A DNA stretch of 24,000 bases, from NCBI RefSeq assembly GCF_012955605.1, contig NZ_CP052135.1:1623469-1647468 (forward strand). The letters run 5' to 3'. Origin of the DNA: Bacillus fonticola. GTDB lineage: Bacteria > Bacillota > Bacilli > Bacillales > JC228. Positions 836 to 23,558 of the stretch are shown piece by piece. Each line of letters starts with the position of its first letter. Position 1 is the first letter of the stretch. The position numbers and the translations under genes were made by a program. Under the pieces are notes generated by a model, which ran no database searches, was not told the DNA's origin, and saw only the letters and a list, made by a program, of their open reading frames with translations.

Positions 836-903
836 TAAATCTTGACTCAATCCACCGCACTTTTTCTCTTCCTTACAAGAATCTTTTTCTGTATAATGGA
901 CAT

Positions 904-1035
904 ATAATTAAAGAGAGAAGTGCGCTAACACTTCTCCCTGCAACCTCTACCGTCAGGGTGGTGGTTGTCATAAGTTTATTTCTCTTTATGAGAACCACCC
1001 TGTTGCTTGTGACGGCGTAGGGTGGTTTTCTCGTT
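904..1035 (+). ncRNA. Predicted antisense RNA of small-basic-peptide module, copy A
   Basis: Extended -10 TGTATAAT (TATAAT at 892-897). 5' hairpin GAGAAGTG/CACTTCTC at 913-938. Terminator-like stem AACCACCCT (993-1001) / AGGGTGGTT (1019-1027) followed by TTTCTCGTT. Fully complementary to the 3' end of the minus-strand peptide mRNA. Ends are estimates. Confidence 0.45.
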
Positions 1036-1125
1036 CTCTAGGACGTGTTTGCGTAAAAAATGTGCGGTTATTTCACGCACCATTCCCTTCACAACCTCAC
1101 GTACGAGTTCAAGAAATGTTTCCAT
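976..1125 (-). CDS. 49-aa basic small protein, copy A (unknown family)
   Basis: METFLELVREVVKGMVREITAHFLRKHVLENEKTTLRRHKQQGGSHKEK. GGGGAGGTGA RBS 7 nt upstream of the ATG at 1125; the track's upstream start is unlikely. TATAAT on the minus strand at 1208-1203. Same 49-codon frame is kept in copies at 11226-11375 and 17387-17536. Confidence 0.6.
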   Translation of the reverse strand: METFLELVREVVKGMVREITAHFLRKHVLENEKTTLRRHKQQGGSHKEK

Positions 1126-1436
1126 GATTATCACCTCCCCCCGATCCAAATCGGAAAGAAGACTGACAACCAACCACCCTCACAATATTCAGCTGCACAT
1201 CTATTATACTCTCTTGTATAGAAGATTACTAGAAAAATCAGAAACATACGTTCCCTTTTTGTAAGGCTTCATCAAGTGGTTCTCTATTTATCAATGTCAT
1301 TCGGTAAAGTCACCAGTTTTAAAGGCTATCAACTAATGTGAAACAATGTCGTGAAACAAGAAAATTCGGTTGATGACAGTGGATTGTGCCCATCATAGGC
1401 ACCATGACCAAAAATTTTCCGGTACACTCATCCTCA

Positions 1437-3135: not shown

Positions 3136-3471
3136 CTTTGGTAGTCTATTTAACAAGCCTCTGTAAACGCTAAAATAGATTATTGAGATGAAAAGGTGAA
3201 ATGAATGTTTATAAATGTGCTTGGAGAAAAAGAAATGGGTGAGTGAAATGATATCGGATAGAAGAAAAGCAGATTTTGTGATTCTATATTCATATTCAAC
3301 ATCTAGTTCTGACTTCCTTCAATTATTCCTAGTAAATTAAAAAAGCAGAAAAAAATAAAGAACTTTGTCTCGGTTTACTATATTGGTAAAAATTAGGGTG
3401 GAACAAGACCCGTCCCCGTGTTTCCCGTGTTTCCCCTTCACACTAAGCATACCTTCATGTATAATAAGATA

Positions 3472-3600
3472 TAAATAAAGAGAGAAGTGTATCGACACTT
3501 CCCTCTGCACCTCTACCGTCAGGGTGGTGGTTGTCAATGAATTTTATTTCTTTTGAGAACCACCCTCTTGCTTCCTACGGCGCGGGGTGGTTTTCTCGTT
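3472..3600 (+). ncRNA. Predicted antisense RNA of small-basic-peptide module, copy B
   Basis: TTCACA, 17 nt spacer, TGTATAAT (TATAAT at 3460-3465). Same 5' hairpin and AACCACCC/GGGTGGTT terminator as copies A, C and D. Confidence 0.4.
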
Positions 3601-3660
3601 CTCTAGGACGTTTTTACGAAAAGAATGTGCGGTTACTTCACGCACCATTCCTTTCACAAC
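3544..3660 (-). pseudogene. 5'-truncated copy of the 49-aa basic peptide gene, copy B
   Basis: Encodes VVKGMVREVTAHSFRKNVLENEKTTPRRRKQEGGSQKK(stop). Start codon, RBS and promoter are lost at the duplication junction at 3660. Confidence 0.6.
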
Positions 3661-3743
3661 ATCTAGTTCTGACTTTCTTCAATTATTCCTAGTAAATTAA
3701 AAAAACAGAAAAAATAAAGAACTTTGTCTCTGTTTACTATATT

Positions 3744-3785
3744 GGTAAAAATTAGGGAAACACAAGAACCGTCCCCGTGTTTCCC
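3744..3785 (-). terminator. Rho-independent terminator after licR, built from a dispersed repeat
   Basis: Minus strand reads GGGAAACAC, a 13 nt loop, GTGTTTCCC, then TAATTTTTACC. It begins 3 nt after the licR stop codon. Confidence 0.55.
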
Positions 3786-3787
3786 CC

Positions 3788-5719
3788 TCACTCTAGCACA
3801 TGGATAAATTCTTCAAAGGTTTTCACACTGATTAACTTTTGAACAATCGGAGGATTCTCGATAATATTCCCTAATAAATCATACATTGATTGCAAGTCTT
3901 CGGTACTGTTTTTCTTTACACAAAGTAAACAAATAAATTGTACTAGCCTATCATTCCAATTAATAGGTTTATCTAATGTGCAAATAGCAAGAAATGTAGT
4001 TTCAGATTTTGGTGCAATGGGATGGGGAACTGCCACCAAATTACCAAAGGATGTAGGGGATATTCCCTCCCGTTCATACACGGCCTCGAGAAAAGTATCT
4101 TCGACTAATCCATTTTTATGCAATTGGTTATGCATAAATTCCAAAACCTCTTCTTTAGAATTAAAGCTTTTTCTTAAATACATGAGCTCTTTTTGGAAAT
4201 AACGATTTACACTCTGCTTGCTTTCAACTACAAAGTCCCTTATTTTCTTAAGGTCATTATCTCCCAAAATAGCATTTACCTCTACTACTGGTACAGGTAA
4301 ATCCCCTGAAATTGGAATGGAACTGACAATAAAATCAATATCGTTTAAATCAAGTTTATCAAGCTTATAATATTCCGTTGTACCAATTACATCAATTTCT
4401 CTACTGAATTTAGACTTTATCTTATAATAGATCAGTTTTGCTGTACCCAAACCGGAAGCACAAACGATCAAGCAGCGTTTAGGACCTGATTTTAATTTTT
4501 GCCTTTCCATTGCCGCTCCAATATGAAGCGCAAGATATCCGATCTCATTTTCATTAATTTTGGTTCCTGTATGTTCTTCTATCACAACTCCTGCTATGAT
4601 TCCCGCTTCAAATGCTAATGGATAGTTCTGTTTAATATCCTTAAGCATTGGGTTTCGTACATTCATTCCATATTTATAGCGATTGATCGAAGGTTTTAAG
4701 TGTAATCCCAAACCAATAATTAATTCTTTATCCAAACTTATTCCTAGATTAAATTCCGCTTCTATTTTTTCAAGCACTACCATGACTAATTGATACATAT
4801 CACCTTCTAAAACTTGTTCAACAACTTCATCAGCATCATTCGTTTGAGATAACATTTTTGTACCTAGTAAGTGAATGGCAATATATGCGATTTCAGCTTG
4901 GGGAAATTGAACATGAAAGGTATCTTCAACTTCCTTCACAATCTGTTTCGCTACTAAATATTCCCTCTGATCAGTAATAGATTGCATATCTGCTTGATAA
5001 AATGTCACATGATATCCACTTTTTATCCGTTTATAGGCGATTGCAATATGGATGAGGAGATTATTCAATGCAATATCTGATAAGGTTATTTTATTGTTCT
5101 CTATTTGTCTCATTATTATAGCCAAAATAGAATCCAAATCTGTTTTAGCCAAAGACGCTAGATGTGCTTCAACAGGATGATCACTTGTCTCCTCATTACG
5201 ATCGAATAAATATTCGGCCACACAGAAACGGCGTTTTAACTCGCTACCTCTAACAGTTAATCCATAATTAGGACGTGATTCCAGACGAATACCATATCCG
5301 CTCAATATATGTTTAACCTGTTTTAAATCATTTTGGATTGTTGATTTACTTACATACATTTCCTCAGCTAAATCATCAAGCTTTTCATACCCTTCACTTA
5401 ACAATAAGCGTTTTATTAAATAAGTTAACCGTTCTTCTGGCGATTTCGGTATAACTGTGCTATCAGAAACCTCTTCCTTAAAAACAGATTGTAAATATTT
5501 ACGGAACTTTAAAGCATCATCAATGAACAACTGATACCCTTTACCCATAATAGAATCGATATGTGCACCATTGTCGGAAATCGACGCATTAATACTTTTC
5601 ACGTCTTCCCTTGTAGTACGTGGTGTTACCTGATTTATATTCGCTAAATATTTTCCTGTGAGAGTAGTTTGTGCCGCCATTAATTCGCGTAGAACTGTTT
5701 TCATTCTGGAGTTCAACAT
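3788..5719 (-). CDS. licR: LicR/MtlR-type PRD-containing transcriptional activator (HTH, two PRDs, EIIB-like, EIIA-like)
   Basis: N-terminal HTH region, duplicated PRD-like segments, EIIB Cys context CLIVCASGLGTAKL, C-terminal EIIA-2-like VAVPHP. Start moved to ATG at 5719 (MLNSRMK), which has an AAGGAGA RBS. Confidence 0.85.
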   Translation of the reverse strand: MLNSRMKTVLRELMAAQTTLTGKYLANINQVTPRTTREDVKSINASISDNGAHIDSIMGKGYQLFIDDALKFRKYLQSVFKEEVSDSTVIPKSPEERLTYLIKRLLLSEGYEKLDDLAEEMYVSKSTIQNDLKQVKHILSGYGIRLESRPNYGLTVRGSELKRRFCVAEYLFDRNEETSDHPVEAHLASLAKTDLDSILAIIMRQIENNKITLSDIALNNLLIHIAIAYKRIKSGYHVTFYQADMQSITDQREYLVAKQIVKEVEDTFHVQFPQAEIAYIAIHLLGTKMLSQTNDADEVVEQVLEGDMYQLVMVVLEKIEAEFNLGISLDKELIIGLGLHLKPSINRYKYGMNVRNPMLKDIKQNYPLAFEAGIIAGVVIEEHTGTKINENEIGYLALHIGAAMERQKLKSGPKRCLIVCASGLGTAKLIYYKIKSKFSREIDVIGTTEYYKLDKLDLNDIDFIVSSIPISGDLPVPVVEVNAILGDNDLKKIRDFVVESKQSVNRYFQKELMYLRKSFNSKEEVLEFMHNQLHKNGLVEDTFLEAVYEREGISPTSFGNLVAVPHPIAPKSETTFLAICTLDKPINWNDRLVQFICLLCVKKNSTEDLQSMYDLLGNIIENPPIVQKLISVKTFEEFIHVLE

Positions 5720-5965
5720 AGTGGTTCTTCTCCTTATAAAATGCATCCGTTATTCTACTATACCGCTAATATTGAAATACTAAAAGGCCCTGATTCTATC
5801 ATGAACCAGAACCCATCAAATCATAGTTTAAAAATTACATTATATAAGATTGTTAAGGAATTGTGGTGAATAGTCTTTATGAGAGTCTCGAGCATTTCAG
5901 CAACTCCCATCCGCATTCCAAACAGGACATTTCATAATCCAACCGTTTTTGCCGCCTCGAATCAG

Positions 5966-10866: not shown

Positions 10867-11100
10867 TGTAATATGAGAAAATGCAGAGTAGAAATAAAAA
10901 GACCGTGGTAGATAATAGCACTACACACGGTCAAAGCAACCACATACCGCGGAATTAGCGGCTAACCTGTGAGTAAGAAATAGTCACCCAACTTGGGTCG
11001 GAGGGGTGGCTATTTCTTTTTGTTTACGGCGACAACGATAGCTACGATTGTTCCTGTATACACAGCCTGAAACGTCTGTGCAGCAATGACAATTGTAACA
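10867..11100 (-). pseudogene. Type I toxin/antisense locus, copy 2: toxin 5'-truncated, antisense RNA apparently intact
   Basis: Reads ..PVTIVIAAQTFQAVYTGTIVAIVVAVNKKK(stop at 11010-11012) with no start codon or RBS; it is cut by peptide module C. The plus-strand TGTAATAT -10 and shared terminator are retained. Confidence 0.5.
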
Positions 11101-11156
11101 GGGCACCGTCACTACTTTTCCTTCACACTAAGCATATCTTTATGTATAATGAGATA

Positions 11157-11285
11157 TAAATAAAGAGAGAAGTGTTTGACACTTCTCCCTGCAACCTCTA
11201 CCGCCAGGGTGGTGGTTGTCAAAAATTATTTACTTTTCTGAGAACCACCCTTTTGCTTGTGACGGCGTAGGGTGGTTTTCTTGTC
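11157..11285 (+). ncRNA. Predicted antisense RNA of small-basic-peptide module, copy C
   Basis: TTCACA, 17 nt spacer, TGTATAAT (TATAAT at 11145-11150). 5' hairpin. AACCACCCT/AGGGTGGTT stem followed by TTTCTTGT. Confidence 0.45.
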
Positions 11286-11375
11286 CTCTAGTACGTTTTT
11301 TCGAAAGAGAAATGCCGCACTTTCACGCATTACCCCTTTCAAAATTTCACGAACGACTTCAAGAAATGTTTCCAT
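11226..11375 (-). CDS. 49-aa basic small protein, copy C
   Basis: METFLEVVREILKGVMRESAAFLFRKNVLEDKKTTLRRHKQKGGSQKSK. GGAGGTGA RBS. Extended -10 TGTATAAT on the minus strand about 75 nt upstream. Confidence 0.6.
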   Translation of the reverse strand: METFLEVVREILKGVMRESAAFLFRKNVLEDKKTTLRRHKQKGGSQKSK

Positions 11376-11700
11376 GATTATCACCTCCCTCCCGATCCAA
11401 ATCGGAAAGAAGACAGACAACCAACCACCCTCACAATATTCAGTTGCACACTTCCATTATACACTCACTTATTGAAGATTACTAGAGAAACAAGAAACAT
11501 ACGTTCCCGTCCATAAGAGACTATTCAATTCACCCTTTTGTAAGGCTTATAAAGCGTTTATCTATTTTAACTATTTACTCGTTAATTAACAACCGTGAAA
11601 CAAGAGAGTTCGGGTGGTGCCTGTGAATTGCGCCCATGATAGTAGACACGAATAATTCAGGAAATCCATGACCATAATGGTGAAAAAAAGGAGCGATTCG

Positions 11701-12003
11701 ATGTCTACTAAAAGAAGTTATAAATCTTATTCGTTTGAACTCAAACTGGATGCAGTTAAAAGAGTACAAGCTGGAGAAAGTGTAAAGGTTGTAGCCAAAC
11801 AATTAGATGTGGTTGATCCTGATTATATTTATGTGTGGATTGATAAATATGAAACCTATGGAGAAGTTGGCTTAAAACGCAAGAAGAGAAACAGTTCCAT
11901 AAGTGACCAAGATATAATTAAAGATTTGGAAATGGAGAATGAAATACTAAAAAAGTATCTTCAAATTCAACGAAAGGAGGGAAAAAGGCAAAGTTCAAGG
12001 TAG
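11701..12003 (+). CDS. IS3-family transposase OrfA (HTH)
   Basis: MSTKRSYKSYSFELKLDAVKRVQAGESV... with a leucine-zipper-like C-terminal end. AAAGGAG RBS before the ATG at 11701. Confidence 0.8.
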   Translation: MSTKRSYKSYSFELKLDAVKRVQAGESVKVVAKQLDVVDPDYIYVWIDKYETYGEVGLKRKKRNSSISDQDIIKDLEMENEILKKYLQIQRKEGKRQSSR

Positions 12004-12011
12004 TTGACGAA

Positions 12012-12916
12012 ATGAAGTCTAAATACCCCGTCTCTAAAATATGTGACAAACTTGAAGTGTCGCGAGGCGGATACTATAAATATGTAAAGAATAAAGGGAA
12101 ACAGAAAAGAGTATCTAATAAAGATAAGGAATTAAAAGAATATATCACAATTGTTTATAACGAACACCAAAAGAACTTTGGTTATCGAAAGGTTCACGGG
12201 GAATTGAGAAACGAACACAACCTTCCAGTAGGCGAAAAAGTCGTTAGAAGGTTAATGCGAGAGTTAGGATTAAAGAGCCAAACACGTAAGAAAAAGAGTA
12301 AATCAGTGAACGGGAATAAAGTGACAGCAGCTGGTTATATCTATCAGAACCTATTAAAAAGAGATTTCTCCATCACTAAAATTAGTGAAAAATGGGCTAC
12401 AGATGTGACTGAATTTCCAATTGGTGATAAAAAGCTTTACCTCTCTGCTTTATTAGATTTACATGATAACTTTGTTTTAGGATATCATATCAACTATCTG
12501 AAGTTCACGACGTCAAACTGGTAGAGGATACGCTTATGTCTTCATTAGAATCTAGAAAACCAGAAGAGGGTATCATTCTTCATTCTGACCGCGGAATGCC
12601 CTACCGTTCCACTCGATGGAATGAATTAATGGGCACGTGTAACATCCTCCCAAGCATGTCTAGAAAAGCGAATGCCCTTGATAATGCATGCATAGAAAGC
12701 TTCTGCTCATTTTTAAAGACGGAGCATAAAGAATTAAAATTAGTCAAGAAAATAGAGTTAGCCAAGCAAATCATCCATGAATATATAGACTATTATAATC
12801 ATAAGCGCATTCAAGGAGTTTTAAATTACAGGACCCTGCTTACTACGGTAAAGCGAGTTAAAAGCGGGCAGATGCCAAGGATTCTCCTTCTCATCTTGAC
12901 AAGCCAACCTCTCTGA
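12012..12916 (+). pseudogene. IS3-family transposase OrfB (DDE), split by a frameshift near 12490-12530
   Basis: The DDE residues lie in WATDVTEF, LHSDRG and DNACIESF, spread over two track ORFs (12012-12524 and 12536-12916) in different frames. Confidence 0.8.
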
Positions 12917-13097: not shown

Positions 13098-13247
13098 AAA
13101 TGTAGCGTAGAAATAAAAAAGACCGCGGTAGCTACAACTACACACGGTCAGGTAACAACTCATGCCGCAAGGATTAGCGGCTAACCTGTTAAGGGCATAG
13201 AAATAGTCACCCTACTTTGGTCGGTGAGGGTGGCTATTTCTTTTTAT
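13098..13247 (+). ncRNA. Predicted antitoxin antisense RNA of the type I locus, copy 3
   Basis: Extended -10 TGTATAAT (TATAAT at 13086-13091). 5' hairpin GACCGCGGTAG..CTACACACGGTC. Strong terminator GAAATAGTCACCC..GGGTGGCTATTTC followed by TTTTTATTT. Overlaps the toxin stop codon and the whole toxin 3' UTR. Ends are estimates. Confidence 0.5.
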
Positions 13248-13341
13248 TTATGGCGACAACGATGGCTACGATTGTTCCTGTGTACACAGCCTGAAATGTC
13301 TGTGCAGCAATGACAATTGCAACAATTTCTGTTGTCTCCAT
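13234..13341 (-). CDS. 35-aa hydrophobic peptide, type I toxin-like (not in ORF track)
   Basis: METTEIVAIVIAAQTFQAVYTGTIVAIVVAINKKK: one predicted transmembrane helix plus a KKK tail. GGAGGGGGTGA RBS 7 nt upstream. Minus-strand terminator with a U-tract at about 13108-13145, so the mRNA 3' UTR is fully antisense to the plus-strand RNA. Confidence 0.6.
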   Translation of the reverse strand: METTEIVAIVIAAQTFQAVYTGTIVAIVVAINKKK

Positions 13342-13368: not shown

Positions 13369-13413
13369 TAGTGGATTGCGCCCATCATAGCAGACACGTA
13401 TACTTCAGGAAAT
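13369..13413 (+). repeat. Solo IS3-type left-end (IRL) remnant
   Basis: gtggattgcgcccatcatagcagacacgtatacttcaggaaat matches the IRL of the IS at 11623-11667. A shorter remnant lies at 1377-1397. Confidence 0.6.
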
Positions 13414-14808: not shown

Positions 14809-16062
14809 ATGAATGAAAAAGAACGGGAACAAGTAGCCTTATTTCGGTATGGACTAATTGCCCCACTATTAAATGAACAGGTGGATGCCAAAGAATACTT
14901 TGGAGAGTTAGTAGGAAAGGTTCACTCCATTCCTTATTATGGAGAGCGAACCGTCGCAGAAAAAACGATGAAGGAATGGCTGCTTCATTACCGCAGACAT
15001 GGGTTTGAAGCATTAAAGCCGAAGAAACGGACAGACCGAGGAAATTCGAGAAGGTTATCGGCTGATGACCAAGATCAACTTCTCGAACTACGAAAAAAAA
15101 TTCTCCATATGCCCGTGAGTGTCTTCTATGAGCACCTCATTGAGCTAGGAGAAATAAAGAAAAATACAATATCATACTCTACTATAAACCGATTACTTAA
15201 AAAACACAATCTAGTAGGGAAAAGAATTGTCGCAACCCCTGAAAGAAAAAGGTTTGCCCATGAACGAGTCAATCATTTATGGCAGGGGGATCTGTCTCAC
15301 GGGCCTTACATTCCGATTGATGGCAAAAAGAAAAAGACGTTTCTAATCGCTTATATTGATGATTGTTCTCGTCTCGTTCCGTTTGGTCAGTTTTTCTCAT
15401 CAGAGAAATTCGACGGTGTAAGAGTCGTGACCAAAGAGGCCCTTCTTCGAAGGGGAAAGCCAACGATGATTTATGCCGATAATGGCAAGATTTATCGTTC
15501 AGAAACTCTTCAATATGCATGTGCTCAATTAGGGATAACGCTAGCTCACACACAGCCTTACGACCCTCGTGCGAAAGGCAAGATTGAAAGGCTCTTTAAA
15601 ACGATTCAAACGAGGTTCTATCCTTTACTCCAAGCAAAACCAGTAGACTCTTTAGAAGAGCTAAATGAACGGTTTTGGCGTTGGCTAGAAGAAGACTATC
15701 ATCGTCGTATTCATGCATCTTTAGATGGAAAGACTCCGCATGAAGTCTACCAATCTCAATTGGAGAACGTGACGCTTCTTGAGAATACAGCGATTCTAGA
15801 CACGATCTTTTTGAAGAGAGAACACCGAAAGGTGAAAGCCGATAGTACAATCACTTTAAACAAACAACTCTATGAGGTACCCCCACGTTTTATCGGACAA
15901 TCCATTGATGTCCGCTTTGATGAGACAGGCATTTTTGTATTTGAAGAGGATCAAAGGGTGGCTGAAGCAGTACCTGTATCAATGACAGACAATGCCAAAG
16001 CAAAACGAGTGCGTTCTCCCTTTACCTTAACGGACGAAAAGGAGGGGAACGACTATGTATAA
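14809..16062 (+). CDS. DDE (rve/Mu-type) transposase, TnsB/TniA-like
   Basis: N-terminal HTH EQVALFRYGLIAPLL. DDE candidates are WQGDLSH, IYADNGKIY and KGKIERLF. Mu-transposase-like C-terminal region. AGGAGG RBS. Confidence 0.88.
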   Translation: MNEKEREQVALFRYGLIAPLLNEQVDAKEYFGELVGKVHSIPYYGERTVAEKTMKEWLLHYRRHGFEALKPKKRTDRGNSRRLSADDQDQLLELRKKILHMPVSVFYEHLIELGEIKKNTISYSTINRLLKKHNLVGKRIVATPERKRFAHERVNHLWQGDLSHGPYIPIDGKKKKTFLIAYIDDCSRLVPFGQFFSSEKFDGVRVVTKEALLRRGKPTMIYADNGKIYRSETLQYACAQLGITLAHTQPYDPRAKGKIERLFKTIQTRFYPLLQAKPVDSLEELNERFWRWLEEDYHRRIHASLDGKTPHEVYQSQLENVTLLENTAILDTIFLKREHRKVKADSTITLNKQLYEVPPRFIGQSIDVRFDETGIFVFEEDQRVAEAVPVSMTDNAKAKRVRSPFTLTDEKEGNDYV

Positions 16063-16855
16063 GTCTTTCTATTCCTTGGCTCAAACACCATTTTCTAAAA
16101 ACTTGCGTTCGGCTGATGCCTTCCAATCAACTGACCACCAAGGTGCTCTTGGAGCACTCGATTACTTGAAGAAATCAAGAGGAATGGGTCTTCTTATCGG
16201 TGATCCCGGTGTGGGCAAAACCTTTACGTTGCGAACGTTTAAAGAATCATTGAATCCCTCGCTGTACCATGTCGTCTATTTCCCTCTTTCGACAGGAGGC
16301 GTTATGGACTTCTATCGAGGCTTAGTTTACGGTTTAGGAGAAGAGCCGAAATTCCGTAAAGTGGATGTATTTCGCCAAATTCAGCAAGGAATTGAACGAA
16401 TGGCCCATGAACGGAAGATGACCCCTGTTTTCATACTCGATGAAATGCATTTGTCTAAAGATGCGTTTCTACAAGACTTAGCGATTCTATTTAACTTTCA
16501 GATGGACTCAACGAATCCATTTATCTTGATTTTAGCTGGGTTGCCACACCTAAAGACACGCTTGTCTATTAATCATCACAGACCCCTATCCCAGCGATTG
16601 ATAATGAAATATGAGATACAGCCTCTAGTGAAGGAAGAAGTAGCCGAGTATATCGACCACCATATGAAGCTAGCTGGAGCTAAGATGCCTATTTTTACGG
16701 AGGCAGCTATTGAGGCGATTGCTTTACGGTCACAAGGACGACCTCGTGTTATTAACACGTTAACCATTAATAGCTTACTATTTGGAACGCAGCAGAAAAA
16801 AGAACAGATCGATGAAGAAGTGGTACGCTTAGCGATCGAGGATAGTGGGTTATGA
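16055..16855 (+). CDS. TniB/ExeA-like AAA+ ATPase
   Basis: Walker A GDPGVGKT and Walker B FILDEMH. Overlaps the transposase stop by 8 nt. Confidence 0.88.
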   Translation: MYKSFYSLAQTPFSKNLRSADAFQSTDHQGALGALDYLKKSRGMGLLIGDPGVGKTFTLRTFKESLNPSLYHVVYFPLSTGGVMDFYRGLVYGLGEEPKFRKVDVFRQIQQGIERMAHERKMTPVFILDEMHLSKDAFLQDLAILFNFQMDSTNPFILILAGLPHLKTRLSINHHRPLSQRLIMKYEIQPLVKEEVAEYIDHHMKLAGAKMPIFTEAAIEAIALRSQGRPRVINTLTINSLLFGTQQKKEQIDEEVVRLAIEDSGL

Positions 16856-17112
16856 TGACAAAAGGAATTATGATCTATAATCAGGAAGAACAAGAATGGA
16901 GATTATGGATTGGGCATCAAGACTACTGGATTCAACAAGGTTATTTCTTTGAACTATTCATTCAAGGGCAGTGTTTTCAAGCCTATCTTCAGAAGGATTT
17001 AGACTGGTTTATCACGATAGAGGATGATGTCAAACTAGTGCTGCACATACAGGAAGTCTATAAAGTAAGCGTTCAGCTAGAGGATTTTATAAAAGTCGAA
17101 GACCCGTTTTAG
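16852..17112 (+). CDS. Small transposon-associated protein (86 aa)
   Basis: ATGA overlap with the ATPase gene, followed directly by a terminator. Function unknown. Confidence 0.55.
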   Translation: MMTKGIMIYNQEEQEWRLWIGHQDYWIQQGYFFELFIQGQCFQAYLQKDLDWFITIEDDVKLVLHIQEVYKVSVQLEDFIKVEDPF

Positions 17113-17126: not shown

Positions 17127-17312
17127 ATTTTAAGAACTGGATTAATTTGAACAGAGTTTTGCATATTCCGGAATAACGTGGAAAACTGAGCACATTATTT
17201 CATATTTTCTCCCGCAATAATTTGAAAATGAGGTGCTGAAATAATGTGCTCGTTTACAATCATCCCATCCAATTTTTTTGCCTATACGAATCTTGTTATG
17301 TATAATGGGCAT

Positions 17313-17445
17313 ATAATAAAAGAGAGAAGTGTTCGAGCACACTTTCCCTACAGCCTCTACCGTCAGGGTGGTGGTTGTCAAAATATTTAATGTTTATCTT
17401 GAGAACCACCCTCTTGCTTGTGACGGCGTAGGGTGGTTTTCTTGT
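17313..17445 (+). ncRNA. Predicted antisense RNA of small-basic-peptide module, copy D
   Basis: TGTATAAT (TATAAT at 17301-17306), 5' hairpin, AACCACCCT/AGGGTGGTT stem followed by TTTCTTGT. Confidence 0.45.
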
Positions 17446-17536
17446 CTTCTAGTACGTTTTTCCGAAAGAGAAATGCGGCAATTTCACGCACTGCCCCTTT
17501 CAAAATTTCGCGAACGAATTCAAGAAATGTTTCCAT
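17387..17536 (-). CDS. 49-aa basic small protein, copy D
   Basis: METFLEFVREILKGAVREIAAFLFRKNVLEDKKTTLRRHKQEGGSQDKH. GGAGGTGA RBS. Minus-strand TGTATAAT upstream. Confidence 0.6.
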   Translation of the reverse strand: METFLEFVREILKGAVREIAAFLFRKNVLEDKKTTLRRHKQEGGSQDKH

Positions 17537-17702
17537 GATTATCACCTCCCTTCCGATCCAAATCGGAAAGAAGACTAACAATCAACCACCCTCACAATAT
17601 TCAGCTGTATCCCTCTATTATACACTCTTGTATAGAAGTTTACTAGAGAAAAAGGAAGCATATGTTTCTAATACATAAGAAATCTCTGTCCTGCTTCTGC
17701 AC

Positions 17703-19928
17703 TCACCTACCCAGTCTTGCCGCGCGATCAATCTTGTTCAATACAAAAATTTCCTGTTTTTCTTTGTCTGTTAACTCCCTTTCTGACAAGTTGTCAATAA
17801 GTTGATCTATTATCTTTTTTTCGTTTCTAGTCATATCTTTGTAGGTCCCACGCAATAATCCAACAATGGAAAACCACATGCCTACATTTGGAAGGAGACC
17901 TGCTCCGCCGAGTACGTAGTTTTTCCAATCTATTTTTTTGTGACTATTATCCTGACTAATTTCGTAAAGTAGTTGGTTATATTCATCTACTTTCTCTTTG
18001 CGTTCATTAGCTGTCAGTTGTTCAAAGTCAGAAAGCATATTTCTTAATGTTTCTCTAGTATGATGACGGTCTGCAATCTGATCAAATTCTGTTATAGGTA
18101 AGGACTCTGCTACATCGAACAATTTTAAGCTATGGGATTCTTGTCGGTGTAGTTGCTTTAACTTCATTAAAGTTTGTTGCTGCTCGCTGTGAGGGTACTT
18201 ATAGCTGTTTAAAATGTCGCCGACGATGTTAGCCACTCCAATGTTGCTATAAACTTTTCGTCCATCTGTTTCTTGAAATGGATAGTAGGTTGCATTTAAA
18301 GCATTAGAAATATAAATAGGAGAACTATTGGCTAGGAATTCGAAGTTGACTTTTTCATTTCCTTTAATGGATGGAATGAATTGATGAACTCCAATGTTAG
18401 CCAGTTGAAACGGACTATCAAAAGTAAGTATCTCCATACTTTTATTTTTGGCTTGAATCGGCCAGGTTAGCATTTTAAAAAGGTCTTCGCTTGAGACGTT
18501 TATTTGTTCTGAAATTTTATCACAAATAATCCGTAATAAATTCCATCCGTCTGAACCAAGATGATTCATGATAGACTGCTGGGCGATCTCTGTAAATTCT
18601 ACCGCTAAAAGTGCATGGATCCCTCTTCTAGTAACTAATGAAAACTCATCAATAGCAAAAGCATTCTTAATTAGCTCCTGATTGTACCGTTTTTCGTCAT
18701 TAACTAGGAAAAGTTTCATTCTACCTCTTCGAATAAGTTCCCAAAGTTCCTCTATCTGCATCCCTTGTTGTTCTAGCCACATTCTTGTATTCTTCTTATC
18801 ATCCATTTCTAATGGTGGAGCAATATAAACGACATCATACAAAAGAAGATGATTCCGCAAATTCAAATTTGAAAAGACAGAAAAATCTAGGTAGCATTTT
18901 GTTACATGTTCTTGGTAAAAATACAGCTTGTCTTTCGTATACTCCCCTGTATATATTTTCTCCGCATTTCTAAACCACAAATCAGCATCTCGAGTTGAAA
19001 ATGGCATCGTGCGGTATGTCTGAACGTGGAGGGCCCTTTCATTTACTGGAGGCGTAGAAACCCCTTGATTCCTTATATGAACTGTTTCGATCGAAGGATT
19101 AAGCTTACAAATAAGTTTTTCAATATTCTCCCGCTCTTCCAAAGTTAAGGTGCTTGAACCGGCGATTGAAACATGCGTAACTTTATCTCGAAATAAAACA
19201 GAACCGACTTTTTGACTAGCATATCGTTGGAGAACAGTATCCCAATCCGAAGAACTTGTAAGACTTCCGTTATGCACCTCAAAGGTATACTTCCCCCATT
19301 TTAATTTCAAAGCATGGTGAAAATTATATAATTCCTGCGGTGAAGCGTGCACAGTAATGATCTTATAGTGGCTCCCAGTTCTATCAGCTATAACCGACTT
19401 AATAAAAACAAAGCTTTTACTTATTTCAACGATTTTCTCCCAGTAGTTTTCTAAGACAAATCTAATGATTATATTTGAAAAGGGGGTTACCGTCTGAGTA
19501 AACTCTCGCAATTCATGCAACATGCCCTGCTTTTGCTCAGCATCATCTACGACTTCTATAATTAGTTCGTGATATGTATAGTCCACGTATAAGCCTTCAA
19601 ACTTCAAAGCGTGAAACTTACTTTCAAGAATTGTTCTCAACTGCATGATCGTTAACGGGAACCCTCTGAATCCTGAAACTGGGTTTGGAATAGAAGGAAT
19701 CTTTTTATTGTATTTCTCCGGTACGTAAGTCGATAGTGCTATTGCTTCTGCAGCGGGTCGAATTGAATAATCAAACGTTTTAACCATTTCATCAAAATAC
19801 TCCAGCGAAGAAAGGCAGACGATGACATAAGCCCGATGGTCAACCTCATAAATTTCCGTCTCTAAACCTAAAAACTCGTTCCTTAATCTAAAATCTACTC
19901 TTTGCACTTGATAGTCAAAACTTTGCAT
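17703..19928 (-). CDS. Large hypothetical protein (741 aa), no recognisable catalytic or NTPase motif
   Basis: Long uninterrupted ORF with an AAGAAGGGG RBS. Hydrophobic segment YVLGGAGLLPNVGMWFSIVGLL (residues 671-692, nt 17853-17918) preceded by a long E/K/Q-rich helical region. A terminator lies upstream, so the gene is probably monocistronic. Confidence 0.85.
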   Translation of the reverse strand: MQSFDYQVQRVDFRLRNEFLGLETEIYEVDHRAYVIVCLSSLEYFDEMVKTFDYSIRPAAEAIALSTYVPEKYNKKIPSIPNPVSGFRGFPLTIMQLRTILESKFHALKFEGLYVDYTYHELIIEVVDDAEQKQGMLHELREFTQTVTPFSNIIIRFVLENYWEKIVEISKSFVFIKSVIADRTGSHYKIITVHASPQELYNFHHALKLKWGKYTFEVHNGSLTSSSDWDTVLQRYASQKVGSVLFRDKVTHVSIAGSSTLTLEERENIEKLICKLNPSIETVHIRNQGVSTPPVNERALHVQTYRTMPFSTRDADLWFRNAEKIYTGEYTKDKLYFYQEHVTKCYLDFSVFSNLNLRNHLLLYDVVYIAPPLEMDDKKNTRMWLEQQGMQIEELWELIRRGRMKLFLVNDEKRYNQELIKNAFAIDEFSLVTRRGIHALLAVEFTEIAQQSIMNHLGSDGWNLLRIICDKISEQINVSSEDLFKMLTWPIQAKNKSMEILTFDSPFQLANIGVHQFIPSIKGNEKVNFEFLANSSPIYISNALNATYYPFQETDGRKVYSNIGVANIVGDILNSYKYPHSEQQQTLMKLKQLHRQESHSLKLFDVAESLPITEFDQIADRHHTRETLRNMLSDFEQLTANERKEKVDEYNQLLYEISQDNSHKKIDWKNYVLGGAGLLPNVGMWFSIVGLLRGTYKDMTRNEKKIIDQLIDNLSERELTDKEKQEIFVLNKIDRAARLGR

Positions 19929-20086: not shown

Positions 20087-20232
20087 CAATTCTCCTACAT
20101 AATACACAGTAAACTCTACACTAACATCGGGTCATCATTTTTCTTGGGGAAGATAAACATGAGTGTATTTGTTTCTAAGACTTTGTATAGCCCTGGCTTT
20201 TTGCCAAATACCTCATTCCCAGCTTTGTTTCA

Positions 20233-20286
20233 TTTTACTATATTGGTAAAGATTAGGTGAACACAAGAACCGCCCCGTGCTTCCTC
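20233..20286. repeat. Dispersed repeat (tttactatattggtaaa..gaacacaagaaccg.cccgtg)
   Basis: Near-identical to 3373-3436 and 3732-3787. Confidence 0.6.
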
Positions 20287-21177: not shown

Positions 21178-22221
21178 TTAGATACGTATATGTGCGTTCA
21201 ACGATTGATTAAGCGTGTATCCCATTAATGTTTTTTCAACAATGTGGAAGTCAAACAACTTATCAATGCCATTTATAATATCCTCTTCAGGAAACCTTTT
21301 GGCTTTATCTCCTGACCAGCGTTTGAATTCATCTACAATTTCAGCTTGTGTTAGTTCTTCTTTTTCTTTTAATAAATACGTAATTGTAGATAAACATTCT
21401 AATTCATGATTGGTGTTGAATGTGTTAACGTATTCTGCTGCTTTTTTAATAAATGGTTGTAATGTTGCAAGCTTTAATTCAACATGACCACTTACAATTT
21501 TATTATACAAAATACCATAGGCCTCTTGTGTACTTTTGACACCATGATACTTCTGAAATTCCTTAATGTTCCTGCTGATAATAGCAATAGAATTATCGTA
21601 TGGCCCGTATTTATGTCTTGTGAAATTGAAATAATGCTCCCCAGAAAAAACATCCATATAGAAAGCTGTCTTTTGAAGTCGTAACGTATCAAATTTCTTG
21701 AGGTGGTGTTTGATATCCATTAAAACAAGCCCAGATAAACTTAAATTGGGTTCAGATTTTGGTTGAGATACGTAATTTTGAGACGGTTCGTATATAAGAA
21801 TTTGAACATTTTCATCAACAGCGGATAACTTTTTCTCGATTAACGCTTTCACATCATTCCAAATTAAACCGCCATTTCCACTTCCTAAAGGTGGAATAGC
21901 AATCGACTGAATACCCAATTGCTCTATTAACTTTACAAGCTCATCCAGTCCTTTTTCTACATATTCAATCTTAGACTTCGCTCTCCACTTATTTTTTGTC
22001 GGAAAGTTAATAATGATTTTACCGTCTTCTTTAAAATAATGTAGCTTCCCAATTTGCAATTCTCCTGTTTTACATGCTTTGACATAATCTTTATTATTGT
22101 TAGGGAACTGCATTTTGAACTGATAAGCAATACCTTTCCCCATATAACCTTCACAATTCACGGTATTCACCAAGGCATCAGCTGATGATTTTAATAAATC
22201 ACCTGTAGTATAGATAATCAC
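21178..22221 (-). CDS. darG: DarG antitoxin (N-terminal macrodomain plus C-terminal DarT-binding region)
   Basis: Macrodomain signature GDLLKSSADALVNTVNCEGYMGKGIAYQFK ... IAIPPLGSGNGGL. GTG start with a GAGAGGTGA RBS, 31 nt after darT. Confidence 0.88.
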   Translation of the reverse strand: MIIYTTGDLLKSSADALVNTVNCEGYMGKGIAYQFKMQFPNNNKDYVKACKTGELQIGKLHYFKEDGKIIINFPTKNKWRAKSKIEYVEKGLDELVKLIEQLGIQSIAIPPLGSGNGGLIWNDVKALIEKKLSAVDENVQILIYEPSQNYVSQPKSEPNLSLSGLVLMDIKHHLKKFDTLRLQKTAFYMDVFSGEHYFNFTRHKYGPYDNSIAIISRNIKEFQKYHGVKSTQEAYGILYNKIVSGHVELKLATLQPFIKKAAEYVNTFNTNHELECLSTITYLLKEKEELTQAEIVDEFKRWSGDKAKRFPEEDIINGIDKLFDFHIVEKTLMGYTLNQSLNAHIRI

Positions 22222-22252
22222 GTTTTCACCTCTCTTTCTTCAACAGTTTTTT

Positions 22253-22846
22253 CTATAGCCAGTGACCTATATCCACAAACGGTGGCATTTTGTAAATTCC
22301 TTTTGATTGCAATTTCTTCTTAACCATCGCCCTTGTTGCTTCATTTTTTACATAAATACATTGAAAAAGCTTGGCTGGAACAACTAAAGGCGTCAAACAT
22401 TCAGCCATTTTTACATTCTTAGTATATCGTTCTTCCGTTCCTGGTGTGTGCATCGTATCCCAATCAATTGCTTCAAAGCCCTCACCATAGTCATATAATT
22501 GATAATTTTCTTTATTGTTAAGTGGATGTATTGGTAGTATTTTGAAATTATTTTCTTTGGCTAGCCCTCTCGTAATACAAATATATATGAATTCTTCATC
22601 TGCATATGTGCTTTTTACAGCAACATCGAATGAGGAATACGGATGGAAATGAAAAGGTATATATTCATCCAATCCAAGTTCTGTTCGCTTAGTAATGATT
22701 TCTTGGTTTGCAATATCAAAAAATCGAACATCACTATCTTTCACTAATTTTCTTGATACTAAACCGTGTTCCAATATGGAGTCTAGGTTCGACAATCTTG
22801 TCAAATGATATAAGAGTTTGCTCGTTTTTATATTATCAATTGCCAT
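22253..22846 (-). CDS. darT: DarT ssDNA ADP-ribosyltransferase toxin (DUF4433)
   Basis: LYHLTRLSNLDSILEHGL (the YHxT start), IPFHFHP, and catalytic-Glu context KMAECLT comparable to the QAEFLV of characterised DarT. Toxin-first gene order. Confidence 0.85.
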   Translation of the reverse strand: MAIDNIKTSKLLYHLTRLSNLDSILEHGLVSRKLVKDSDVRFFDIANQEIITKRTELGLDEYIPFHFHPYSSFDVAVKSTYADEEFIYICITRGLAKENNFKILPIHPLNNKENYQLYDYGEGFEAIDWDTMHTPGTEERYTKNVKMAECLTPLVVPAKLFQCIYVKNEATRAMVKKKLQSKGIYKMPPFVDIGHWL

Positions 22847-23061: not shown

Positions 23062-23558
23062 TTAAAAGATAAGATTCGCAGAAACGCCTAAGATCCTTGC
23101 AGCCTGACGTTGTGATAGTCCATCTATTCCTTTTATTTTTCTCAAGACTTCATTTCTTTTTAACCTAGGTAAACTCTTTACTTGCGCTATCTCAATCGAA
23201 CCTAGTGTCTGTCTAATTTCTAATCTCGCATCTTCATCCATTTTTCTACTATTATTAATGCGTTCATCTAGACACTTATCATGATTCAGCTCTTCATTAA
23301 ATGCTTTAAATTTCTCTTTTGCAATTGTTCTATCTCCAGGAAACATCCCTAATAGTAAGTCTTTATCCAACTAATCACTCGGAAAATAACTTTTATCATA
23401 GTATCCAAGACAACTGCTCCACTTCCCTTCATCAACCTTATCTACGACACCAGCTTTTACTGGGTTTTGATGAATATACCTTTTAACCGTTAGTAAATAA
23501 TTATCCGTTTCTACATTTTCACTTTTGAATCACTTTTCACCCTAGCTCTTCGGGGCAT
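23062..23558 (-). pseudogene. Decayed copy of the Y1 (HUH) transposase gene
   Basis: Reads MPRRARVKS, then an internal deletion removing the HUH core, then ..FKSENVETDNYLLTVKRYIHQNPVKAG..(stop)..LDKDLLLGMF...GLSQRQAARILGVSANLIF. Track ORF 23062-23370 is its C-terminal part. Confidence 0.8.

Follow-up and report, generated by a model that had tools for sequence, protein, structure and literature searches.

A 24,000-nucleotide (nt) stretch of the Bacillus fonticola chromosome (NCBI RefSeq assembly GCF_012955605.1, contig NZ_CP052135.1, positions 1,623,469 to 1,647,468 of the forward strand), hereafter referred to as the window, contains a module of approximately 350 bp in four copies: three complete copies (A, C, and D) and one copy truncated at its 5' end (B). 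The module combines a minus-strand gene for a 49-residue peptide with a predicted convergent antisense RNA gene on the plus strand. The peptide gene is under coding selection, the promoters of both genes and the structures of both RNAs are conserved, and the module occurs in multiple copies among mobile elements and on plasmids. We consider it reasonably probable that the module represents a new, atypical family of type I toxin-antitoxin (TA)-like cassettes. A preliminary description of this DNA had listed four copies, one of them truncated, and this count was reproduced by a repeat finder, a four-way alignment, and nhmmer searches with separate 5' and 3' half-models, which agreed with one another (Table 1).

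The peptide gene had been described as a truly coding one, and this view was upheld by codon-level selection, periodicity, and maintenance of the frame. The open reading frame (ORF) comprises exactly 49 codons in copies A, C, and D despite the divergence of A and C, which are 67% identical, as had been stated. Among 66 distinct ORFs of the family, codon-position entropy (0.45, 0.29, and 0.72 for the three positions, respectively) revealed a three-base periodicity, and the helix-coding part (codons 6–31) showed a median ratio of nonsynonymous to synonymous substitution (dN/dS) of 0.18, with mean proportions of nonsynonymous (pN) and synonymous (pS) differences of 0.16 and 0.54, respectively. 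This ratio, which had been proposed as a check across copies, is not near 1. The reading frame and the ORF were intact in all 80 related loci fetched, and the length of the product varied between genera from 46 to 51 amino acids, with all differences being in frame. A Shine-Dalgarno (SD) sequence, GGAGGTGA, is conserved 7 nt before the conserved ATG. Frameshifted tails are present in a few database members and look like copy decay. A 64-residue version of the peptide initiated at an upstream TTG was ruled out by the position of the conserved SD sequence and by the NCBI protein record for the copy C peptide, which is the 49-residue form, an identical "hypothetical protein" of B. fonticola. With a product of fewer than 60 amino acids and a coding sequence under selection, the gene resembles the small toxin gene of a type I TA system.

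Synonymous sites are nearly frozen at both ends of the ORF, with pS values of 0.04 for codons 0–5 and 0.15 for codons 32–45. These stretches encode METFLE and KKTTLRRxKQKGG, respectively, and coincide with helices of the predicted RNAs. To judge from these alignments, an RNA constraint is superposed on the coding constraint.

The sense promoter has the form TTGATA-17-TGnTAnAAT throughout the family and lies 6 to 8 nt before an almost invariant GCAACUGAAUAUUGUGAGGGUGGUUGGUUGUC. Its spacing to the conserved GCAAC start places the 5' end of the copy C mRNA at about position 11447 and gives a leader of approximately 72 nt, in agreement with the roughly 70 nt estimated previously. The "extended –10" element that had been assigned to this promoter is not canonical in copy C, in which TG directly abuts TATAAT instead of forming TGnTATAAT; the equivalent region of copy A is AGTATAAT. 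The predicted 298-nt mRNA has a minimum free energy of –119 kcal/mol (z = –8.1 versus shuffled sequences) and adopts a rod-like fold in which GCAAC at the 5' end pairs with GUUGC at the 3' end and GGGUGGUUGGUUGUC in the 5' region pairs with GACAACCACCACCC in the 3' untranslated region (UTR). In an alignment of 61 sequences, 95.9% of cells were paired, compared with 47–59% when the partners were slid by one to three columns, and all measures of covariation exceeded those of all 500 shuffles. Compensatory changes were found in the end-pairing helix, the SD hairpin, an intra-ORF helix, and the terminator; columns 31:304 of the end-pairing helix, for example, contain 44 AU, 9 GC, and 7 GU pairs. 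Copies of the Bacillus cereus group carry GUAAC/GUUAC in place of GCAAC/GUUGC and GGUUAUC/GAUAACC in place of GGUUGUC/GACAACC, with both long-range helices being preserved. A leader hairpin had also been noted, and it is present, although the SD sequence lies within it rather than merely next to it; this hairpin (consensus helix 3) is 97.8% paired, with double changes at three pairs. The best explanation of the modeled fold is a peptide mRNA built for poor translation and for stability, in which a hairpin traps the SD sequence and the 5' end is held by pairing to the 3' region.

On the plus strand, a TATAAT box is near invariant throughout the family, at a fixed distance from the hairpin and usually within (A/G)TGTATAAT, whereas the –35 region is variable. 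The TTCACA-17 promoter previously recognized in copies B and C was found again in both. The antisense RNA predicted to start at about position 11157 forms three hairpins, with z values of –4.0 (102 nt) and –5.4 (139 nt). It has two candidate 3' ends: one at about 11258 (approximately 100 nt, covering about 10 codons), after GGGUGGUGGUUGUC...GAGAACCACCC-UUUUGCUUG, and the other at about 11288 (approximately 130 nt, about 20 codons), after AACCACCCU...AGGGUGGUU-UUCUUGU. Our first estimate of a 100-nt RNA was revised given that the family consensus fold prefers the 130-nt form, the size and extent (last 20 codons or so) that had been suggested at the outset. Read on the antisense strand, the consensus helices are 96.9% paired and include 340 G·U cells; on the sense strand G·U becomes C·A, and pairing therefore drops to 82.0%. 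This strand specificity and the conserved –10 box bear out the earlier proposal of a conserved convergent antisense RNA gene.

The peptide mRNA spans the whole of the predicted antisense RNA, which covers the final 10 to 20 codons, the 3' UTR, and the terminator, the last being complementary to the antisense 5' hairpin. The two RNAs are perfectly complementary because they are arranged in cis. Given that the antisense RNA covers the 3' segment with which the mRNA 5' end pairs, the two must compete for this segment. A putative antisense gene with its own promoter and with complementarity to the mRNA is what the antitoxin side of a type I TA system would have.

The module is widespread. A sequence search retrieved 67 relatives, every one of them small and "hypothetical," from Neobacillus, Metabacillus, Cytobacillus, Domibacillus, Sporosarcina, Oceanobacillus, and other genera. 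Relatives in Bacillaceae genomes and B. cereus-group plasmids number at least 163. A scan of one genome per species yielded 163 encoding loci, and an exhaustive HMMER search returned 103 clusters at 50% identity, all of stand-alone peptides. Sixty Bacillus-group plasmid records contain a version of 51 amino acids that is annotated as a coding sequence by NCBI, and the B. cereus-group plasmid copies are approximately 70% identical in nucleotide sequence to the window copy. About 110 copies were counted in 85 loci, with extra copies lying close together, including three in tandem in one related locus (L047). The family appears to be undescribed, with annotation providing nothing beyond "hypothetical protein."

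In the window, the copies lie among an IS200-like Y1 transposase gene beside a ComM/ChlI fragment, a broken IS3 element, and a Tn7/Mu-like transposase gene with an AAA+ partner, with a DarT and macrodomain pair and a cellobiose phosphotransferase system (PTS) operon as further neighbors. ComM-like/Y1 transposase, IS21, and AAA_22 genes recur beside relatives in other genera, and the plasmid copies have recombinase genes, YjcZ genes, and ArsR as neighbors. Across the chromosomal and plasmid loci compared, no conserved partner protein gene was found beside the module. In copy B, the sense promoter, leader, ribosome binding site, start codon, and approximately the first 10 codons are missing and about 39 codons remain, but the antisense RNA region is retained together with an antisense promoter identical to that of copy C. 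Such clustering, the association with mobile elements and plasmids, a match of the peptide to a phage protein family (phrog_6429), and copy decay with the antisense half kept would be typical of a selfish module.

A structure model of the peptide obtained with AlphaFold2 from the family alignment consists of one helix (residues 2–34; predicted local distance difference test score of 88–94 over the first 20 residues) followed by a disordered tail. The helix is about neutral (net charge of –1, with acidic and basic residues balanced), and the tail has a charge of +8. The Kyte-Doolittle maximum over 19 residues is 0.5–1.0, compared with approximately 2.2 for TxpA, BsrG, and Fst, although the latter value is indicative only. 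The hydrophobic moment of the helix is 0.60–0.63 and its mean hydrophobicity 0.43–0.50; the corresponding values, which are indicative only, are 0.65 and 0.51 for delta-lysin and 0.62 and 0.55 for SpoVM. The peptide had been presented as amphipathic, basic, and not a membrane toxin. The lack of a transmembrane segment agrees with this description, but the exclusion of a membrane toxin goes beyond the evidence in view of a moment similar to those of delta-lysin and SpoVM. The peptide is non-transmembrane, and it may act at the membrane surface.

Rfam at gathering thresholds gave nothing that overlaps the module in the window or in 10 related loci. When thresholds were relaxed, four of five copies gave RatA (RF01776; gathering score of 49) as their best antisense-strand match, with 20.9 bits for copy C and 30.4, 28.1, and 25.9 bits for the L047 copies. 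The likeness to RatA recurs in the promoter-proximal hairpin region but does not amount to membership. BsrG (RF01412) gave weak matches of 11.6–15.8 bits on the sense strand, compared with a gathering score of 55. Searches of the peptides against Pfam, NCBIfam, and PADLOC returned only noise (E of at least 0.015), with no family at a meaningful E value and no homology to TxpA- or BsrG-type toxins. No match was obtained in a profile search of PDB with the peptide at E values up to 10, no relative was detected by tblastn and blastn in 50,697 phage records, no tRNA or tmRNA was found by scanning, and the peptide motifs METFLE, KTTLRR, KQKGGS, and KTTPRR led to no relevant paper in the searchable full-text literature. 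The sole family matched by the peptide was phrog_6429 of PHROGs v4, whose function is unassigned; the match extends over the full length, with E values of 2.3e-6 (window copy) and 3.4e-12 (Bacillus cytotoxicus plasmid copy). The YhzE family, with 28 amino acids and a hydrophobic composition rich in glycine and aromatic residues, was ruled out as a relative, and XrrA/XrrB of pXO1 is unrelated.

The layout had been likened to the 3'-overlapping systems txpA/RatA and bsrG/SR4, and the recurrence of RatA as the top Rfam match, though below threshold, supports this comparison. As in txpA/RatA of Bacillus subtilis, the two genes converge with overlapping 3' ends, the antisense RNA begins just past the terminator of the toxin gene and ends inside the ORF, and both systems are associated with mobile elements. 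In contrast, TxpA is a transmembrane protein of 59 amino acids to which the module peptide, without a hydrophobic segment, is unrelated, and the module mRNA adds extensive pairing between its 5' and 3' ends and a fully buried SD sequence. Type I systems of B. subtilis overlap at their 3' ends and act mostly through RNase III (PMC6562991, PMC8594479), the documented mechanism of RatA being RNase III-dependent decay (PMC6562991, PMC3531473). The RNAs of bsrG/SR4, from the SPbeta prophage, likewise overlap at their 3' ends; the SD sequence of bsrG mRNA is partly sequestered, and the SR4 antitoxin can affect both decay and translation (PMC3834814, PMC6562991). BsrG differs from the module peptide in being a membrane peptide of 38 amino acids.

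In hok/Sok and aapA1/IsoA1, the mRNA 5' end pairs over a long range with the 3' region, so that full-length toxin mRNA persists in a translationally silent state (PMC8594479). A 5'–3' long-range pairing is also predicted for the module mRNA. These systems, however, belong to another phylum (Gram-negative bacteria), position their antisense RNA over the ORF or close to the 5' end, encode hydrophobic toxins, and show no sequence relationship to the module. Nearly every type I toxin is a hydrophobic membrane peptide, the cytoplasmic SymE and RalR being the exceptions (PMC6562991, PMC8594479), and the module peptide lacks the typical transmembrane character. Like SymE/SymR and RalR/RalA of Escherichia coli, the module would place a non-hydrophobic cytoplasmic toxin under the control of an antisense RNA (PMC6562991). 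SymE (an RNase of 113 amino acids) and RalR (a DNase) are nevertheless larger, folded enzymes, whereas the module peptide is modeled as a single helix with a tail and does not match them.

From the features described above we infer transcription of both genes, regulation of one RNA by the other, toxicity, and the target of the peptide, which would fit together as follows. The antisense RNA would bind the 3' segment that is otherwise held by the mRNA 5' end. The resulting long duplex would be a substrate for RNase III and the freed mRNA 5' end for RNase J1/Y, and peptide synthesis would remain off as long as the cassette is present. Loss of the unstable partner would allow the peptide to be made, and growth would be slowed or stopped. 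The peptide, with its amphipathic helix of 30 residues and its +8 tail, might act at the membrane surface or bind nucleic acid or the ribosome, and the cassette would stabilize the mobile elements and plasmids that carry it. It is tempting to go further and to propose a new Gram-positive class of type I systems, with a soluble, cationic, single-helix toxin that, instead of spanning the membrane, is directed at a protein partner, nucleic acid, or the ribosome and with a "self-antisense" 5' leader that occupies the 3' site of the antitoxin, so that strand displacement unlocks the mRNA for decay; we regard this extended version as speculative and unlikely.

Several observations weigh against a type I cassette. 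The peptide lacks the transmembrane segment that nearly all type I toxins have, the matches to RatA and BsrG fall far short of their gathering scores, and neither family is matched by the B. cytotoxicus copy. The alignments in which the pairs of the RNA structures were counted are also those from which the structures were derived, and conservation of the basic tail may reflect RNA structure more than peptide function. In one alternative, the module would encode a non-toxic small protein under cis-antisense control, for example one that regulates or assists the mobile elements, plasmids, or phages that carry it, and the antisense RNA would merely tune its level. A precedent exists in YhzE-2, a small Bacillus protein whose gene likewise has an antisense RNA at its 3' end and which was non-toxic when tested (PMC2887945), and the peptide both looks soluble, with one helix and a basic tail, and belongs to a phage protein family of unassigned function. 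An addiction module nevertheless fits better than a housekeeping regulator with the heavy translational locking of the mRNA, with the many paralogous copies per genome and the location on plasmids, with copy decay that keeps the antisense half, and with the absence of a conserved adjacent partner gene. We regard a non-toxic protein as a rather improbable explanation.

The type I reading also has a variant that differs only in the target, with the peptide acting on membranes as a surface-active amphipathic helix (by a carpet or pore mechanism, in the manner of delta-lysin and phenol-soluble modulins) anchored by its cationic tail. The hydrophobic moment comparable with those of delta-lysin and SpoVM, the +8 tail, and the single long helix modeled by AlphaFold2 speak for this variant, but the comparison values are indicative only, and balanced charges with a net of –1 are typical of soluble helices or coiled coils; we find it unlikely. 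Far less plausible is a non-coding repeat, whether a miniature inverted-repeat transposable element, a repetitive extragenic palindrome-like sequence, or a small RNA gene pair, in which the 49-codon ORF would be incidental. Nucleotide conservation is as high in the UTRs as in the ORF, and synonymous sites are frozen in parts of the latter, as such a repeat would predict. The in-frame insertions and deletions between genera, the SD sequence at its constant distance from the ATG, and the ORF kept intact in every fetched locus stand against it, and we rejected it on the basis of dN/dS and the three-base periodicity.

Hydrophobicity and predicted transmembrane segments have been the criteria by which type I toxins are sought (Fozo et al. 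2010, PMC2887945; T1TAdb, PMC8594479), an approach that by its design would have missed a widespread family of non-transmembrane peptides. If toxic, the peptide would add to the small set of non-membrane type I toxins, now SymE and RalR, both from E. coli, and the module would offer a compact, highly conserved RNA pair for the study of 5'–3' mRNA locking and antisense displacement in Bacillus as well as a marker for mobile-element stabilization in Bacillaceae and B. cereus-group plasmids. If the peptide is non-toxic, the module would still be a small protein paired with an antisense RNA, strongly conserved yet unannotated, that comprises more than 100 sequence clusters and has no assigned function.

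Table 1. Features of the four module copies, in window positions.
Feature	Position	Strand	Basis
Copy A, complete module	864..1235 (approx.)	minus	repeat finder, alignment, nhmmer half-models
Copy A ORF	1125-976, stop included; ATG 1125	minus	
Copy A antisense –10 TATAAT	892-897	plus	
Copy B, 5'-truncated module	3435..3664 (also delimited as 3471-3664)	minus	alignment, nhmmer half-models
Copy B antisense promoter	3437-3465 (TTCACA 3437-3442, TATAAT 3460-3465)	plus	
Copy C, complete module	~11120-11470	minus	
Copy C sense promoter –10 region, TGTATAAT	11456..11463	minus	
Copy C predicted peptide mRNA, ~298 nt, GCAAC 5' end to terminator tail	11150..11447	minus	
Copy C 12-bp hairpin containing the SD sequence	11385..11412	minus	
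Copy C ribosome binding site/SD sequence GGAGGTGA (GGGAGG)	11381-11388	minus	
Copy C 49-codon ORF plus stop, METFLEVVREILKGVMRESAAFLFRKNVLEDKKTTLRRHKQKGGSQKSK	11226..11375; ATG 11375, stop 11228-11226	minus	
Copy C intrinsic terminator of peptide mRNA	11164..11190	minus	terminator scan and covariation in consensus helix 12
Copy C antisense promoter TTCACA-17-TATAAT	11122..11150	plus	scores 11/12
Copy C predicted antisense RNA, three hairpins	11157..11288	plus	
Copy D, complete module	17273..17666 (approx.)	minus	repeat finder, alignment, nhmmer half-models
Copy D ORF	17536-17387, stop included; ATG 17536	minus	
Copy D antisense promoter TTGCCT-17-TATAAT	17278-17306	plus	

The surroundings of the individual copies were also inspected. 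At copy A, a ComM/ChlI-like ATPase fragment, a Y1 (IS200-like) transposase gene, and the module follow one another (1625-2897, minus), and the same gene order and orientation were found at the relative in Bacillus sp. S3 (L083, 3123-6144); the module may travel with this ComM/Y1 transposase element. A repeat (1634-1933 and 23065-23364, 71% identical) corresponds to a second fragment of the Y1 transposase gene. Beyond the Bacillus sp. S3 module, by approximately 250 bp and on the opposite strand, lies a cyclic di-GMP-I riboswitch (L083 6508-6591, minus, 63.8 bits) that is probably unrelated to the module. Copy B is flanked by a direct repeat of approximately 130 bp (3297-3426 and 3657-3785, 86–97% identical), with a partial third copy at 20223-20276, and is situated just upstream of a PRD/PTS-EIIA regulator gene (3788-5746). 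An IS3-family element adjoins copy C (11668-12916, plus); its transposase is split into ORFs of 111, 170, and 126 amino acids, so that the element is probably inactivated.

Immediately upstream of copy D, genes for a Mu/Tn7-like transposase (rve and Mu-transpos_C), an AAA_22 ATPase, and an 86-amino-acid ORF were identified (14809-17112, plus), and a pair of AAA_22 and DUF5348 genes lies near the Neobacillus niacini relative. Directly on the other side of copy D, an ORF of 741 amino acids (17703-19928, minus) has no match in Pfam or PADLOC and matches only phrog_36744 (function unassigned, E of 2e-17). The same island encodes a DarTG-type TA pair (21178-22846, minus), in which the gene for a macrodomain protein (21178-22221) comes after that for DarT, a single-stranded DNA thymidine ADP-ribosyltransferase (22253-22846).

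The window also contains a second family of small genes, represented by an intact hydrophobic ORF of 35 amino acids, METTEIVAIVIAAQTFQAVYTGTIVAIVVAINKKK, at 13234-13341 (minus), with the SD sequence GGAGGGGGTGA and a terminator. This ORF has no match in Pfam or NCBIfam, and it resembles a typical membrane toxin of type I systems. Remnants are present at approximately 11030-11100 and 1534-1612, the copy adjoining module C lacking the NH2-terminus and the start. Read-through of the module mRNA into this hydrophobic ORF was considered and was ruled out by the strong terminator between the two and by the loss of the start in that ORF copy. A match to ctRNA_pT181 at 10944-11029 (plus; 33.1 bits, E of 0.013, below the gathering score of 56), with equivalents near 13170-13260 and 1510-1600, is plausibly the antisense RNA of the hydrophobic ORF. 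A 49-bp repeat (D12) located approximately 90 bp upstream of modules A and C (1350-1398 and 11594-11642; compare 13375-13400) resembles the promoter and leader (TGCTATGATGGGCGCAATCCAC) of the intact hydrophobic ORF. Module C is thus flanked by a leader-like piece on one side and by the 3' portion of a hydrophobic-toxin gene on the other, an arrangement that suggests cassette insertion or recombination.
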